Positions 45,436 through 50,591 of a stretch of 64,000 nucleotides of DNA are shown here, in pieces. Positions within the stretch are counted from its first letter, which is position 1; each line of letters begins with the position of its first letter. The position numbers and the translations under genes were made by a program. Below the pieces are notes generated by a model. The model was not told the origin of the DNA. It worked only from the letters and a program-made list of their open reading frames with translations, and ran no database searches. The DNA is from Candidatus Helarchaeota archaeon (lineage in GTDB: Archaea; Asgardarchaeota; Lokiarchaeia; Helarchaeales; RDOG01): positions 779,983 to 843,982 of the forward strand of contig JAHPZH010000003.1 of assembly GCA_019058315.1 (NCBI GenBank), written 5' to 3'.

Positions 45436-46640
45436 GTAGATTCTTGCAAATGAATGGATGTTCGGCAGAAAAAATATTAAAAAAACTCGGTAAAATTATG
45501 GGAGCCGATATGTCATATGAAGAACCGGGCATCCTTGGTTCAATGTGCACTTCACCTTTAGAATTTGCCAATCAAATTTTCGCAACTTATCTCCATAAGA
45601 ATCTTGGAGATCCTGGGCTTTGGTTAGGAACTTGGGCAATTGAGCGTGATGTAATTAAAATGCTCGGAAATTTACTTAATGACCCTAATTGCTCAGGTTA
45701 TCTTGTAACAGGTGGAACTGAAGCGAATTTAATTGCTATGAAAGCTGCTAGAGATACCGCTCGATTTGATGGAAGATCCGAAATAGTAGTTCCAGAATCC
45801 GCACATGCTTCATTTGATAAAGCAGCGGACCTGATGAGACTAAAAGTAATTAAAGTACCATTAAATGAGGAATATACTGTTGATATAGAGGGAGTAGAAG
45901 AAGCTATAAGTAAAAGGACAGTGGCGATTGTGGGTATTGCAGGCAGTACAAGCCTGGGAACAATTGATAATGTGGAGAAACTCTCTGAAATTGCATTAGA
46001 TCATGGGATTTATTTACATGTGGACGCAGCATTTGGTGGTTTTGTTATCCCATTTATGAAACGTATGGGTTATGAACTTCCAAAATTTGATTTTGAATTA
46101 CCAGGTGTATTAAGTATAACAGTTGATCCTCATAAAATGGGATTAGGTCCTATTCCTTCGGGAGGTATTCTATTCCGAAGTGAACAAAATATAGTAAAAA
46201 GTTTTTATAACATTCCATATCTTGCTGGAGGTAAATTTAAACAGGCAACTATTGTCGGAACACGCTCAGGAGCCTCAGTTATAGCAACATGGGCTATAAT
46301 GAAATTTTTAGGAATTATGGGATATATAGATATAGTTCGTAAATGTATGAAGCTAACAAACTACTTTGCAGACAGTTTAAGGGAAATTGAAGGGATAAAA
46401 TTAGTTCGGGAACCAGTAATGAATATAATTGGTTTTACTTCTAATAAATTTTCAAATTATAAAATAGATAAGGAACTACGTAGAAAAAGATGGGCCATCG
46501 GTTGTTTTCCGGATATGTTGCGGGTTGTTGTAATGCCACATATACAAAAATCTCATGTGGATAAATTTATTCACGATTTAAAGAAAATTACAGCATCTTT
46601 GATTCCTGAAGAAACGCCTAAAGATAAATATTATTTGTGA
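45432..46640 (+). CDS. mfnA: PLP-dependent tyrosine/aspartate decarboxylase (beta-alanine forming)
   Basis: ILGSMCT, NLGDPGL, GGTEAN, HVDAAFGG, DPHKMG, GTRSG. Confidence 0.92.
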   Translation: MSRFLQMNGCSAEKILKKLGKIMGADMSYEEPGILGSMCTSPLEFANQIFATYLHKNLGDPGLWLGTWAIERDVIKMLGNLLNDPNCSGYLVTGGTEANLIAMKAARDTARFDGRSEIVVPESAHASFDKAADLMRLKVIKVPLNEEYTVDIEGVEEAISKRTVAIVGIAGSTSLGTIDNVEKLSEIALDHGIYLHVDAAFGGFVIPFMKRMGYELPKFDFELPGVLSITVDPHKMGLGPIPSGGILFRSEQNIVKSFYNIPYLAGGKFKQATIVGTRSGASVIATWAIMKFLGIMGYIDIVRKCMKLTNYFADSLREIEGIKLVREPVMNIIGFTSNKFSNYKIDKELRRKRWAIGCFPDMLRVVVMPHIQKSHVDKFIHDLKKITASLIPEETPKDKYYL

Positions 46641-46660
46641 TTCGTGTATTAAAAGAAAAA

Positions 46661-47101
46661 TCAGGTTTTACCTACTTTTTTTGATATTTTTTTGATCGTT
46701 TCTTGATCAATCATATCTGATTCTATCAAATTTCTAATTATTTTATAACCACCACATTGAAGATACTCGTCACCTTCCCCATGTTCGGATTCGGTATAGA
46801 ATCCACATGCGATTTTACAGAAATTTTTGACCAAAAATAAATCTAATTTTGATAAACCTTTTTCTTCTTTGTTTTGATGACTTATTATTTTAGCTAATTC
46901 TTTAAGTTTTTCACGATCGATAAATTCGTTTTCGAGCTGATATCTTATAAATTTAAAACTTCCACAATCTAATATTTCCTCTTCATCCACTTCTTCGCCT
47001 TCTTTATAGAATTTGCATGCAACTTTACAAATTTCATTTACTATAAAATCTTCTAATTCCTTTAGCTTATTATTTTTTTTAATTTTAATCAACTCATTCA
47101 T
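46661..47101 (-). CDS. Duplicated Cys-motif protein, radical SAM partner
   Basis: Two copies of C-K-x-A-C-x-F-Y...L-x-C-G-x-F/Y; 4-bp overlap with the radical SAM gene. Confidence 0.75.
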   Translation of the reverse strand: MNELIKIKKNNKLKELEDFIVNEICKVACKFYKEGEEVDEEEILDCGSFKFIRYQLENEFIDREKLKELAKIISHQNKEEKGLSKLDLFLVKNFCKIACGFYTESEHGEGDEYLQCGGYKIIRNLIESDMIDQETIKKISKKVGKT

Positions 47102-48318
47102 TTGTTATTATTATAATCAAAATTATAGCTAATACATCTAATTTTATCTACTCCTAAGATATCATTTGTTAGAGTTAATGCCCTGTATCGACAACCGCCC
47201 TTACAGTCTTCTAAATAAGGGCAATTAACCTTATTACATTTTAATTCTTCTTGTTTCCAGATATAATTCTTCTGAATTTTTTTCCAGCAATTCAATAAAG
47301 ACTCCTTATTAAGGTTTCCGACAGGTTTGTCTCCAAAAAATTGACATTTACTTACATTTCCATCTGGCATAATTGCACAAACATGTGACCCACAAGCAAA
47401 TATTGAACTTTGTTCTTCGGGAAAACCACCCCAACCAAAATTTTTCAAAGCATCTACAGCTTTTTTAAAGTCGGGTACGAAATTTTTGTTCTTTTCAAAT
47501 TCTCCTGTTAATATAGGAACGTCTAAAGTCCAATTTTCCACCTTTAACTCTTTTAATATTTTTTCTAATCGTGGAAATTCTTTTAAATTTTTATTGTGTA
47601 TCATAGTTGCAACTTCGATTGGAATTTCCGCTTCTTTTAGCATTTTTATAGCAGCAATAGCTTTAGAAAAAGCATTTTTATCCGCTCTAAATTCATTATG
47701 GCTTTCTATTCCATCTATAGAAATTTGAACTTCATGAACATATTCTTTAATATATTCAACCAGCTCGGGTTTCATTAAAGTGCCATTTGTAAGAAGCATA
47801 ATTCTGATGGGGAACTGACTAATAAATTTGAGTAACTCTTTAAACTGAGGATGCATAAGGGGTTCTCCACCAGATAAGAGTACTCTTAAGCCTTGCATAT
47901 TATAGAATTCAGGAATGAATTTTTTAATTAAGGTTAAAGGGAGATCTAAGTTCTTTTTTTCTCCAACATAACAATGAACACATTTTAAATTACATCTTAA
48001 GGTGATATGGATTAAAACACTTCTTAGAGATGGTAAAGGAGGTTTTTGGGTTTCTTCTTCTAAATTATTTTTTCCATTTGGGTTTTTTTTGTCAATTATT
48101 ATACCATTTTGTATCAGATCTTTAGTAAATTCCTTTAATTCGTCTAAATTTATACCAATTTGTTCAGAAATTTCGGATAAACTCCATTTTCCTGTAAAAA
48201 GACGAGTTGCTCTAAAAGCTTCTTCATCCAAATTAAATATTTCCTCATTTTTATAATCATATAAAATATAATCTTCTAGATTACGAAGAGTAAAATTTTT
48301 GGTAATTATAGGATGCAT
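47098..48318 (-). CDS. RRE(PqqD-like)-radical SAM-SPASM peptide maturase
   Basis: N-terminal three-strand plus wHTH segment (YILYDYKNEEIFNLDEEAF...LIQNGII), CNLKCVHC, SGGEP, TNG, SIDG, SPASM CGSHVC..DGNVSKC...C..NC....CKGGC...C. Confidence 0.88.
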   Translation of the reverse strand: MHPIITKNFTLRNLEDYILYDYKNEEIFNLDEEAFRATRLFTGKWSLSEISEQIGINLDELKEFTKDLIQNGIIIDKKNPNGKNNLEEETQKPPLPSLRSVLIHITLRCNLKCVHCYVGEKKNLDLPLTLIKKFIPEFYNMQGLRVLLSGGEPLMHPQFKELLKFISQFPIRIMLLTNGTLMKPELVEYIKEYVHEVQISIDGIESHNEFRADKNAFSKAIAAIKMLKEAEIPIEVATMIHNKNLKEFPRLEKILKELKVENWTLDVPILTGEFEKNKNFVPDFKKAVDALKNFGWGGFPEEQSSIFACGSHVCAIMPDGNVSKCQFFGDKPVGNLNKESLLNCWKKIQKNYIWKQEELKCNKVNCPYLEDCKGGCRYRALTLTNDILGVDKIRCISYNFDYNNNK

Positions 48319-48370
48319 AAAAACTCATACTTCAACTTTAATTTTTTGGGTAATATTTAATTTAATAAGA

Positions 48371-48408
48371 GTAATACGCCCGCATACTATTTTAAATGCG
48401 CGTATTAC
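48371..48408. promoter_or_regulatory. GC-rich inverted repeat in the divergent rSAM/peptide intergenic region
   Basis: GTAATACG(CC)CGCAT 48371-48385 / ATGCGCGTATTAC 48396-48408. Confidence 0.55.
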
Positions 48409-48444
48409 CCGATAAAATCCATTATTTTATCCATTTTTACTTAT

Positions 48445-48461
48445 CCTTTATATATTAAAAA
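48445..48461 (+). promoter_or_regulatory. TATA-box promoter for the small peptide gene
   Basis: CCTTTATATATTAAAAA ending 40 bp before ATG 48501; an identical 17-mer occurs on the minus strand at 13534-13518. Confidence 0.55.
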
Positions 48462-48500
48462 AACACACTATAATCAATAAATAATTTGGTTTGATTAAAA

Positions 48501-48566
48501 ATGAAAATTACTCGAGTTAGTAAAAAGAAAAAAACTGCAGCATGCGCATGCAAAAAATGCTGTTAA
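48501..48566 (+). CDS. Putative RiPP precursor peptide MKITRVSKKKKTAACACKKCC (21 aa)
   Basis: ATG 48501 to TAA 48564-48566; basic leader plus CxCxxCC core; TATA upstream, T-run downstream; divergent from RRE-rSAM-SPASM gene. Confidence 0.75.
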   Translation: MKITRVSKKKKTAACACKKCC

Positions 48567-48573
48567 AACAACC

Positions 48574-48581
48574 TTTTTTTT
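48574..48581 (+). terminator. Oligo-T archaeal terminator
   Basis: T8 run 8 bp after the peptide stop codon. Confidence 0.45.
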
Positions 48582-48649
48582 ATTTTCTACTATTTTTTAT
48601 ATAACATAAGTAGTTTATTTTGCTTATTCTTATCTAGTTTTATAAAATA

Positions 48650-49045
48650 TTAAGAAACTGGTGTCCAACTTAAAAAGTATGAGTTATCTATGTTTAGATA
48701 TTCAGCTTTCATTTTCATTCCTATTTTAAGATCCTTTTCCTTTGCCATAATTCTCGCAATTGACCTACCTATTTCTTCTTTTAATTCAATAATCCCCAAA
48801 ATATAAGATTGTTCAACTGAATATTCAATAGAAGTCCAACTATAGAGAGTTCCTTCACCACTTAATTCAAACCATTCTATTTCTTTCGATAAACATTTTG
48901 GGCAATGAGCTAAGGGAGGAAAAAATTTAATCCCACATTTTTTACATTTAGGTGCAAATAGCTTTTTGTCTTTCAATCCGTCCCAGAACTTCTTAATGTG
49001 CTTAGATTTAAATGGAGTTAAATATTTATCTGAAATTTTAATCAC
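48650..49045 (-). CDS. DUF35/ChsH2-type Zn-ribbon OB-fold protein
   Basis: FWDGL..KKL..PKCKKCG..FFPP..HCPKC, SGEGTLYSWT. Confidence 0.9.
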   Translation of the reverse strand: MIKISDKYLTPFKSKHIKKFWDGLKDKKLFAPKCKKCGIKFFPPLAHCPKCLSKEIEWFELSGEGTLYSWTSIEYSVEQSYILGIIELKEEIGRSIARIMAKEKDLKIGMKMKAEYLNIDNSYFLSWTPVS

Positions 49046-50216
49046 CTCTACTTAAAATTGCTGTAAAACAATTATTTACAGTTCCACCTTCTGCTTGAAA
49101 TAGACCCATTTCTGCCCCATCTACCTGATTTTCATTCTCATTTCTTAATTGTCGCAGCAAACTAACTAATTCATAAATAGGTGTTGCCCAAGCAGGATGC
49201 CCACGTGATAATAAGCCACCATCAGTATTGATTGGAATTCTTCCGTCTTTCTCAGTCTCACCTTCACGAATTCCCTTTACCATATCACCCTTATTTTCAA
49301 AAAATCCTAGATCTTCAGGGATCATTAATTCATGAGCTGAAAAAGGAGCATATATTTCAGCTACATTAATATTTTGAGGTGTAATTTTTGCCATTTTATA
49401 AGCTTGACGTGCAGATTCTTTTGATGCAACGAATTCGGTTATTGGTTTTTGAAATGTATGTGAGATAAAACAACTATTATCGTGATATTCACCAAAGCCT
49501 TTGATGAAAATTGGTGTATCAGTATATTTTCGTGCGTCTTCTTTTCGAGTTAATATTATTGCTGCTGCTCCGTCCCTCATAGAAGAACAATCTAGCAATT
49601 TTAATGGACTGGAAATTATTTTCGAATTTAACACATCATCAATAGTTATAGGTTTTCGAAATGTGGCGTAAGGATTTTTTCGAGCATTCTTATTGTTTCT
49701 AACGACTGCTCTTGCAAAGTCTTCTTCCGAAGCTCCGTAATCATGCATATATCTTCTAGTAGAACACGCATATCCCCAGATAAATCCTACTGGACAAGAA
49801 GGTTGATCAATAGGTTCAAAAAATGCAGGTCCTTTTCCCTCTTCATGTAAAATTTCTAAGAATCGACTACCTAATGAATACTCCCTATCAGCACTATAAA
49901 TTACAATTGTGTTGATAAAACCCATTTGAATTTCATAAATTGCATGTTTCAGAGCTAGACCACCTGCGACTCCTCCACAGCCTATAGAATATGCAACTTT
50001 AGTGGGAAGATCCATTGCCTCTAGAACTAATGAAGTTTGCATTTCAATAGTATTAGCATAATTTGGAGTGGTTATAATTCCTTGAAGTTCTTCCTTATTC
50101 ATATTTGCATTTTCTAATGCTCTTGAAATGGCTTCTACTGCAAGGTCTGTTTCTGATTCTTGAGGGTATTTTCCAATTGGGATAGCTCCATAACCTATGA
50201 TAGCACTGTTAAACAT
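49038..50216 (-). CDS. Thiolase-family (SCP-x/Ltp2-like) protein
   Basis: NARKNPYA, PLKLLDCS...DGAAA, INTDGGLLSRGHP; ATG 50216 preferred over TTG 50234. Confidence 0.87.
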   Translation of the reverse strand: MFNSAIIGYGAIPIGKYPQESETDLAVEAISRALENANMNKEELQGIITTPNYANTIEMQTSLVLEAMDLPTKVAYSIGCGGVAGGLALKHAIYEIQMGFINTIVIYSADREYSLGSRFLEILHEEGKGPAFFEPIDQPSCPVGFIWGYACSTRRYMHDYGASEEDFARAVVRNNKNARKNPYATFRKPITIDDVLNSKIISSPLKLLDCSSMRDGAAAIILTRKEDARKYTDTPIFIKGFGEYHDNSCFISHTFQKPITEFVASKESARQAYKMAKITPQNINVAEIYAPFSAHELMIPEDLGFFENKGDMVKGIREGETEKDGRIPINTDGGLLSRGHPAWATPIYELVSLLRQLRNENENQVDGAEMGLFQAEGGTVNNCFTAILSRGD

Positions 50217-50591
50217 AATCAAAAAAACTTCCAATTATTTCATAAATGATTCGAAATTAATAAAATATTAATATTTTTAAACATAAAAGATATTATATTT
50301 CATTCCTTACTCTTACAAAGCAATTAATTTAGCTTATATTTCACTAATATAAATTTTAAACTTAACAACTTGTTAATAAAATAATTAAAGGATTAGATTT
50401 TTTAAAAATAATTAGAACATCTAAATCTAGAATATGAATAAATTTAAGAATGTAAAAAATCTAAAAATATAGGAGGTTTTTTGACTATAATTTATGCATC
50501 CGAGGGTTTTGGAAAAAATACCCCTAATTTCGAACTATAATTTGTAAATTTTCTAATATAAAATCTAAATTTTTTTATAAAATGAGGGAAT

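Follow-up and report, generated by a model that had tools for sequence, protein, structure and literature searches.

Genes and features of the locus

We analysed a 64,000-nucleotide (nt) stretch of DNA from a Candidatus Helarchaeota archaeon (contig JAHPZH010000003.1, positions 779,983 to 843,982; hereafter the window) and describe here a module of three genes within it, which encode a cysteine-rich peptide of 21 amino acids (aa), a divergently transcribed radical S-adenosylmethionine (SAM) enzyme and a small protein built of three-cysteine modules. An initial annotation had read the first two as a candidate system for a ribosomally made peptide that is modified after translation (RiPP) in an Asgard archaeon. 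That lineage agrees with the source names of the related sequences, all of which are Promethearchaeota, Lokiarchaeota or Hodarchaeota.

The peptide gene, read directly from the sequence, lies at 48501-48566 on the + strand and encodes MKITRVSKKKKTAACACKKCC followed by a stop codon. Its product divides into a leader, MKITRVSKKKKTAA, and a core, C-A-C-K-K-C-C, which is a single C-x-C-x3-C unit ending in a C-terminal cysteine. A TATA-like box, TTTATATATT, at 48447-48456 (+), about 45-54 nt 5′ of the ATG, is the putative promoter element of the gene, and a run of eight T residues (T8) at 48574-48581 (+), 8 nt past the stop codon, is likely the archaeal oligo-T terminator of the peptide transcript. 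Separated from the peptide gene by 182 nt, the enzyme gene runs in the opposite direction (47098-48318, −) and encodes 406 aa. The start of the small-protein gene (46661-47101, −) overlaps the enzyme stop codon by 4 nt (ATGA). This third component, a 146-aa protein that the initial annotation had left undescribed, proved to be the most constant partner of the enzyme.

Conservation of the module in Asgard genomes

Of 41 related genomes, 13 contain a full-length ortholog of the enzyme (36-47% identity), and exactly the same 13 contain the small protein when it is sought genome-wide. At E ≤ 2e-4, a profile of the peptide matched 10 of the 13 enzyme-bearing genomes and none of the 28 non-carriers. 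In a sample of 251 genomes covering the phylum, the small protein occurs in 18 genomes, and the peptide profile matched 10 of these 18 carriers against 0 of the other 233. The shortest forms escape this profile: those of G087, G102 and G068 were recovered with a DNA pattern, and that of G076 scored E = 0.005. Overall, no fewer than 15 of the 18 carriers, spread over three classes or families, have a peptide homolog.

The arrangement of the three genes is flexible. Cysteine-rich small open reading frames for the peptide lie within 1.5 kb of the enzyme gene in four loci, and single-module homologs of the small protein, 69-87 aa in length, lie directly downstream of the enzyme gene in 12 of 12 relatives' loci. 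Across 24 further loci from named metagenome-assembled genomes, all of them Promethearchaeota or Hodarchaeota, the enzyme gene stands directly upstream of the small-protein gene in 22, the two exceptions being a contig end and a truncated remnant. The peptide gene lies within 10 kb of the enzyme gene in 15 of these 24 loci, and among five further genomes checked, three have it at another place in the genome. A divergent, adjacent peptide gene, as in the window, is seen in G029 (L013/L040), L039 and L041, and in G076 and G113 of another family; that family (G076, G113 and G128) mirrors the window with a divergent 21-aa peptide, the enzyme and two small-protein genes. In G004 the peptide gene is again divergent, about 1.9 kb away and with a 372-aa gene intervening. 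One genus has its small-protein gene 11-21 kb from the enzyme gene, and G087 retains enzyme, small protein and peptide spread over about 120 kb. As far as searched, the three-gene module is restricted to Asgard archaea. Its enzyme orthologs in Promethearchaeota and Hodarchaeota genomes do have homologous peptides, with leaders of the form MKI[VT]KKEK...A, the pattern expected if the initial annotation was correct in tying the short reading frame to the enzyme as a genuine gene. The candidate gains considerable weight from this comparison.

No further neighbour, protease or exporter is conserved around the module loci, which upholds what had been noted for the window from its own sequence. One genus of another class and one genome of the family labelled f4 do have a gene of the major facilitator superfamily (MFS) directly upstream of that for the enzyme (L122:4258-5433 of G087, L123 and L124; L008:27-1352 of G028). 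This MFS gene matches Pfam MFS_1 and MFS_3 ('transmembrane secretion effector', EntS-like) and may encode an exporter of the product there, but it is not conserved elsewhere. One genome alone (G031, L037:829-1335 of L009) carries a 168-aa zinc-ribbon-like open reading frame (MSYMDYSKMFSCPRCGAEG...) between the peptide gene and the enzyme gene. In the window, the peptide gene is adjoined at 48650-50234 (−) by genes for a DUF35-type zinc-ribbon/OB-fold (ChsH2-like) protein and a thiolase-like protein, the usual archaeal thiolase/DUF35 pair, which we regard as unrelated to the module because it is not conserved beside the module elsewhere.

The peptide family

Alignment of the homologs gives a family leader of the form M-K-[IV]-x-K-K-x-K-x3-A, only about 13 aa long, and a core of one to three C-K-C-G-x-x-C units with 0-4 residues between units, in which the last cysteine is always the C-terminal residue. 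The division between leader and core drawn in the initial annotation agrees with this alignment. Peptide lengths range from 18 to 42 aa. Relatives in the same order have 20-aa forms with a single unit (MKVTKVTKRKTAACKCGQSC and MKIVKKEKRSSTACKCGASC), and the window form likewise has one unit; an 18-aa version, MKKIRKKTATACKCGASC, was found with the DNA pattern C-x-C-x3-C-stop in three of three genomes of a genus in another class. One genome (G008) holds two copies of a 39-aa peptide gene (C275:25128-25244 and C124:2826-2942), each with a paired operator of the kind described below on its 5′ side; one copy adjoins the enzyme gene and the other does not.

Codon differences among seven 39-codon versions, counted pairwise so that the pairs are not independent, comprise 331 synonymous and 67 non-synonymous changes. 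One pair differs at 14 synonymous and 0 non-synonymous positions, and the alternative frames of these versions are interrupted by stop codons. The peptides are under clear purifying selection. The elements flanking the window gene recur as well: a T-rich run lies 3′ of the stop codon in 23 of 23 peptide loci whose sequences were printed, and a box of the TTTAAA/TTTATA type lies about 50-60 nt 5′ of the ATG in nearly all of them (farther in L057). Both elements had been noted for the window gene in the initial annotation.

A reading frame of 21 codons is very short, it carries no database annotation in this genome, no RNA run is listed among the public sequencing runs with this DNA, and the frame could in principle have stayed open by chance in AT-rich DNA between genes. 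That it is no gene at all is nonetheless extremely improbable, given homologs in so many carrier genomes across three classes or families, the clear synonymous excess in their codon differences, the conservation of the promoter-like box, the T-run and the upstream operator, and the fact that six clusters have been called as proteins in public Promethearchaeota annotations. These six are the only peptide clusters in a collection of 5.8 billion proteins, and all are named as hypothetical proteins of Promethearchaeota.

Searches of the peptides against Pfam and NCBIfam gave nothing significant: NCBIfam had no match, and the best Pfam matches were to metallothionein profiles (Metallothio_PEC at E 0.076 for one of 13 peptides, Metallothio_2 at E 1.7 for four of 13). 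Rfam had no match in 46500-48800, and a scan for bacterial sigma-70 promoters and hairpin terminators, which is not applicable to archaea, found nothing above shuffled sequences. DNA contigs of other sediment metagenomes include near-identical strains that retain the region, and among their listed changes is a G>A at 48520 (Ser7Asn in the leader); coverage is patchy and these contigs were not used as evidence.

The radical SAM-SPASM enzyme

The window enzyme matches Pfam Radical_SAM (PF04055) at 80 bits against a cut-off of 29.5, which places it in the superfamily, and it also matches Fer4_12. Its radical SAM core (with the motifs CNLKCVHCY and GGEP) and SPASM domain, delimited by Pfam, alignment and model, are encoded at 47098-48033 (−). 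Across 24 aligned orthologs, the CxxxCxxC motif (C109, C113, C116) and G150-G151-E152-P153 are invariant, as are seven cysteines of the SPASM region (C309, C325, C361, C366, C372, C376 and C395). The SPASM signature (PF13186/TIGR04085) is C-x9-15-G-x4-C ... C-x2-C-x5-C-x3-C ... C and provides for two auxiliary [4Fe-4S] clusters. The window enzyme reads C309, G320-x4-C325, C361-x4-C366-x5-C372-x3-C376 and C395, its middle block opening with x4 in place of x2, and it scores 21.0 bits with Pfam SPASM, just below the cut-off of 21.5. We place it in the SPASM subfamily on the strength of these cysteines, and the same cluster content is predicted for it.

The sequence N-terminal to the radical SAM core (about aa 1-95, encoded at 48034-48318, −) is predicted to form a PqqD-like winged-helix domain, the RiPP recognition element (RRE). 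Such elements are N-terminal winged helices of three β-strands and three helices that bind a leader peptide as an added strand. An AlphaFold2 model of the enzyme (pLDDT, the predicted score in the local distance difference test, 90.5; predicted template modelling (pTM) score 0.89) places strands at residues 3-5, 9-13, 17-21 and 26-30, helices at 32-38, 47-54 and 58-70, and a strand at 74-76, all ahead of the barrel. The window enzyme itself falls below the Pfam PqqD (PF05402) threshold in this region, with only weak winged helix-turn-helix matches; an ortholog of the same family (L004 of G001) exceeds it, at 23.9 against 23.4 bits. With its SPASM-region cysteines and a predicted PqqD-like N-terminus, the product of the divergent radical SAM gene agrees with the domain order first ascribed to it.

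In Foldseek comparisons with the Protein Data Bank (PDB), the enzyme model matched best to three peptide maturases, SkfB, SuiB and CteB (E 4e-18 to 6e-17), with full-length structural alignments to the SPASM enzymes SuiB, CteB and anSME. No curated maturase cut-off is reached in NCBIfam: AlbA NF012164 (94 against 850 bits), ACGX TIGR04340 (75.5 against 400), CefB NF038107 (64.9 against 600), StsB NF045574 (63.5 against 625) and SbtM TIGR04082 (74.5 against 350) all score below theirs. The sole near-full-length NCBIfam match, likewise sub-threshold, is that to the sactipeptide maturase AlbA. Membership of the CrpC-type family TIGR04463 was rejected at 39.6 bits against a cut-off of 525, and a selenoprotein/SbtM relationship was rejected on the ground that the peptides contain no TGA codon. 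A search for related loci with the enzyme alone returned only generic bacterial radical SAM genes.

The three-cysteine small protein

By sequence reading and alignment, the 146-aa protein joins two modules in one chain (aa 1-75 and 76-146), each of the form C-x3-C-x-FY-x-E...C-G-x-[YF]-K. Aligned with its homologs, it shows C25, C29, F31 and C46 invariant and Y32, E34, E37, E42, Y43 and K50 nearly so, while its N-terminus is unconserved and is missing in L002, L003 and L005. The other family that mirrors the window (G076, G113 and G128) has two separate small-protein genes in tandem, and we therefore regard the window protein as a fusion of two modules. Double-module fusions have arisen independently at least twice, which suggests that the protein works as a dimer.

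The model of the small protein is all-α (pLDDT 83) and found nothing in the PDB at E ≤ 0.001 with Foldseek; Pfam and NCBIfam contain no family for it, and we took a match of P0002 to DUF1378 (20.3 against 25 bits) for chance. The family is small. There are 187 clusters, and each cluster with an organism name belongs to an Asgard lineage; a profile search of 1.84 billion representatives gave 80 matches, ten of them at E ≤ 1e-10 and none named, and a search of the ESM Atlas by features returned unnamed clusters only.

Three further observations concern copies of this gene. A double-module small protein unlinked to the enzyme lies between DJ-1/PfpI and SIR2 genes in G087 (L114:7627-9540) and on the contigs of P0067 and P0087. 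A ZIP metal transporter gene is inserted right after the small-protein gene in two near-identical genomes (G087 and G102); it was rejected as a conserved link in view of that near-identity and of two other members of the subfamily without ZIP. Finally, an N-terminally truncated 58-aa small-protein gene stands beside purH at L059:10031-10207 with no adjacent enzyme gene, and it looks like a decayed copy of the module because no peptide was found in that genome.

A paired operator shared with nickel/cobalt uptake genes

The intergenic region of the window contains three operator-like heptamers at 48350-48408 (no strand assigned): GTAATAT (48350), GTAATAC (48371, a 21-nt period) and GTATTAC (48402), where 0.2 would be expected in 182 nt. 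Together they form a candidate NikR-type site. The region upstream of cbiM on contig 7 of the same genome has two GTAWTAY pairs, also with a 21-nt period, and throughout the order of the window such pairs, with a period of 21-22 nt, stand 5′ of both the peptide gene and cbiM.

Two other lineages present the same association with different half-sites. In the loci of family f4, one or two copies of TCATAYT-N13/14-TCATAYT lie upstream of the TATA box of the peptide gene, and a few kb away a pair is also found before a cbiM-cbiN-like-cbiQ-cbiO operon, on its upstream side. Five f4 genomes have 20 matches to this pair genome-wide against 11 for a reversed control. Of the 20, eight lie upstream of peptide genes, and cbiM has five on its upstream side (one of these five assigned by its identical site sequence only, no open reading frame being printed downstream). 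One f4 genome contains no match besides the peptide site and the cbiM site. For the exact pattern GTATTAC-N14-16-GTAATAT, three genomes of another class have five sites upstream of the peptide gene, one upstream of cbiM and none anywhere else, with 0 matches for the control.

Published NikR boxes have the forms GTATGAT-N13/14-ATCATAC and GTGTTAC-N13/14-GTAACAC (PMC545781). On its contig 6 the window genome has a gene for a 152-aa NikR, with the domains RHH_1 and NikR_C, and other genomes also encode NikR, which is the putative regulator. No operator was seen upstream of the nikR genes. With an uptake system as the other partner of the operator, the peptide is presumably produced under scarcity of nickel or cobalt. 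The initial annotation had offered a metal-binding product with an intracellular role as one alternative, and the operator held in common with the nickel/cobalt importer strengthens it.

Two side observations touch this regulon. In several genomes (L085:1435-2659 of G000 contig 6, L086, L088 and L090) a conserved gene of about 240-245 aa that belongs to no Pfam family stands before nikR and points the same way, and its recurrence there indicates that it may have a NikR-associated function. Two overlapping GTAWTAY pairs at 476949-476988 of G000 contig 5 mark either a further putative regulon member or chance.

Proposed function and alternatives

A leader and a cysteine-rich core encoded beside an RRE-radical SAM-SPASM enzyme make up a genetic architecture like that of sactipeptides and ranthipeptides. 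In the former a cysteine sulfur is joined to the α-carbon of an acceptor residue, and in the latter to a β- or γ-carbon. We consider it on balance probable that the three genes produce a RiPP-like intracellular peptide that handles nickel or cobalt and is tailored by the radical SAM enzyme. The lysine-rich leader (MKI..K..K...A) would be bound by the winged-helix domain of the enzyme, whose radical chemistry would then modify the core with its one to three C-x-C-x3-C units; by analogy with the closest structural relatives, thioether cross-links of the sactionine or ranthionine type would be the most likely change. The helical three-cysteine protein, translationally coupled to the enzyme, would probably act as a dimer and as a helper that binds a metal or a cluster. 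From its own promoter and terminator, and under a NikR-type operator of paired heptamers, the peptide would be switched on together with nickel/cobalt uptake, because the operator otherwise marks the cbiM/nikM importer of the energy-coupling factor (ECF) type. The product would then serve as a tailored high-affinity buffer or chaperone for nickel (or cobalt) in the cytoplasm, the most likely place of action because the peptide has no signal sequence and the module no conserved exporter or protease.

Binding of the leader by the enzyme, as the initial annotation had envisaged, was modelled with the enzyme of locus L037 and its own 39-aa peptide in the presence of three [4Fe-4S] clusters and SAM. 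The pair scored 0.55 against 0.00 for the best of three controls, with contact agreement of at least 34% and a partner pLDDT of at least 40 in the runs. In calibration, the pass mark admitted 58 of 80 solved complexes and two of 110 mismatched pairs; at scores of 0.60 or less it admitted only seven of the 80 solved complexes and both passing mismatches. The pass may also reflect likeness to known structures, because similar complexes (SuiB-SuiA and CteB-CteA) are solved. The predicted complex therefore favours the binding part of the proposal for this pair, as weak support.

This modest score is among several observations that weigh against a tailored nickel/cobalt peptide. The peptide was not found in three of the 18 carrier genomes (G023, G039 and G202, all of them fragmented or 89-97% complete). 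The operator argument is weaker in the window genome than in the other two lineages, because the pattern there was set after inspection and GTAWTAY pairs are not enriched genome-wide (20 against 16 for the control); the case for a candidate operator in that genome draws on the local crowding of the heptamers, their 21-nt period and the similar pairs at cbiM. In family f4 the enzyme and the peptide are not obviously co-regulated, because the enzyme promoters have no paired operator. The metal may be nickel or cobalt, the transporter matching best as CbiM and below every curated cut-off. A three-cysteine heptad could also bind nickel or other metals without any modification. Finally, the small protein is more tightly linked to the enzyme than the peptide is: its gene is nearly always directly downstream and overlaps that of the enzyme in the window, whereas the peptide gene may be 3-100 kb from the enzyme gene or on another contig. 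If proximity alone is considered, the small protein makes a stronger substrate candidate than the peptide.

One possible explanation of this last point is that the small three-cysteine protein is the real substrate, cross-linked as QhpC is by QhpD or CrpA by CrpC, and that the peptide is an unmodified metal-binding member of the same physiological system and not a RiPP precursor. Besides its place next to the enzyme gene in the relatives' and further loci, the small protein has three invariant cysteines with nearly invariant glutamate and tyrosine residues between them, which recalls thioethers from cysteine to aspartate or glutamate, and protein substrates of an RRE-radical SAM-SPASM enzyme have an archaeal precedent (PMC13692751). 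An RRE classically binds an extended leader, however, and the leader of the peptide is conserved while the N-terminus of the small protein is not. The small protein is predicted to fold as a helical bundle, its independent double-module fusions suggest a dimeric functional protein and not a precursor, and its position 11-21 kb from the enzyme gene in one genus, next to DJ-1/PfpI and SIR2 genes, indicates that adjacency is not obligatory. We regard modification of the small protein as the less probable course, at perhaps one chance in a few.

A further alternative, which we think improbable, dispenses with a RiPP altogether: the peptide would be a metallothionein-like or HypB-like metal-binding peptide, and the enzyme and small protein would do an unrelated job, for example cofactor or cluster maturation, in the same metal regulon. 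The C-K-C-G-x-x-C repeats resemble plant metallothionein motifs, their number varies from one to three as in metal-storage peptides, and an operator common to peptide and importer is what this explanation would predict as well. The weak metallothionein matches are not significant, though, and a plain metal-binding peptide offers no obvious role for a conserved leader-like N-terminus. Its strict co-occurrence with an enzyme of the peptide-maturase type, even where the genes are unlinked, is hard to explain without direct dependence, and the best structural relatives of that enzyme are peptide maturases and not cofactor enzymes.

Returning to the tailored nickel/cobalt peptide, a more detailed version of that reading is tentative, and we hold it with distinctly less confidence than the general one: a peptide tailored by the radical SAM enzyme and switched in NikR-type fashion together with NikMNQO/CbiMNQO, which, with its three-cysteine partner, would act as a cytoplasmic metal buffer or chaperone for nickel enzymes such as hydrogenase and carbon monoxide (CO) dehydrogenase, or might instead, in the lineages with an MFS_3 gene beside the enzyme gene, be an exported nickelophore. 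Hydrogenases and CO dehydrogenase need nickel and hold a central place in the syntrophy proposed as the lifestyle of Asgard archaea, the prokaryotes most closely related to eukaryotes; to our knowledge, almost nothing has been established experimentally on how these anaerobes acquire nickel in sulfidic sediments and allocate it. Having its operator in common with the nickel/cobalt importer offers a concrete and testable physiological role for a module of which two of three parts have no Pfam or NCBIfam model and whose peptide is almost never annotated. Because it is very small (a peptide of 18-42 aa, one enzyme and one helper), the module should be easy to reconstitute. If the reading is correct, it would be the first RiPP-type factor for nickel/cobalt trafficking and the first RiPP family specific to Asgard archaea, and a tailored heptad with three thiolates would offer RiPP chemistry an interesting and compact motif for metal binding.

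Comparison with known systems

Metallothioneins, the N-terminal CxxCGC nickel site of HypB, Hpn, methanobactins and bufferins are metal-binding peptides or sites with clustered thiolates or cysteine and histidine residues, each serving the homeostasis of one metal. Among these, methanobactins and bufferins are ribosomal peptides tailored at cysteine, by MbnBC or by an enzyme of the MNIO type. The Asgard peptides have no homology to such peptides in Pfam or NCBIfam, and their presumed maturase is a radical SAM enzyme in place of MbnBC or MNIO. Unlike RiPP metallophores, they have no export machinery, and their presumed metal is nickel or cobalt rather than copper. We know of no cysteine-rich peptide gene, in the literature searched or elsewhere, that is described as belonging to a NikR or NikMNQO/CbiMNQO-type regulon.

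The putative operators resemble those of NikR in having two 7-nt half-sites 13-16 nt apart upstream of an ECF-type nickel/cobalt importer. Compared with the published ATCATAC and GTGTTAC/GTAACAC (PMC545781), the half-sites TCATAC(T) and GTATTAC/GTAATAC show 0-2 base changes. In contrast to the published boxes, the half-sites of family f4 and of the window genome are direct and not inverted, and the regulator is putative.

QhpD, a SPASM radical SAM enzyme, makes thioethers from cysteine to aspartate or glutamate inside its partner QhpC, of about 80-110 aa, in the maturation of quinohemoprotein amine dehydrogenase. It is the model for a three-cysteine, glutamate-rich small protein as substrate; the Asgard module differs in having no sequence relationship to this pair and no quinone cofactor context or dehydrogenase genes nearby. 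In archaea, CrpC of Methanococcus voltae is an RRE-radical SAM-SPASM enzyme that installs ranthionine cross-links in repeated cysteine motifs; the CrpABC system has three genes, its proteins are reported to be up-regulated on pyrite, which links it to metal-sulfide supply, and CrpA is a large protein with 10 repeats of 17 residues and a 47-residue leader (PMC13692751). CrpABC and the Asgard module are thus alike in being archaeal, in having three genes and an enzyme predicted to have the same domain composition, and in a presumed link to metal supply. They differ in the large protein substrates of the Crp system, which has no counterpart of the small three-cysteine protein.

The closest parallels in architecture are the thioether maturases of sactipeptides and ranthipeptides (CteB/CteA, the SCIFF family, AlbA and SkfB) and SuiB, whose enzymes have the order of PqqD-like RRE, CxxxCxxC radical SAM domain and seven-cysteine SPASM domain that is predicted for the Asgard enzyme. 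Sactipeptide and ranthipeptide systems likewise have a short partner peptide with an N-terminal leader and a cysteine-rich C-terminal core. By comparison, the Asgard peptides are much shorter, with a leader of only about 13 aa, and the module has no protease or exporter, includes a third conserved protein and is linked to a putative nickel/cobalt regulon. Radical SAM/SPASM maturases with cysteine-rich precursors are already known; what is new here is an Asgard-restricted family of enzyme, peptide and three-cysteine partner with a predicted role in nickel or cobalt handling.

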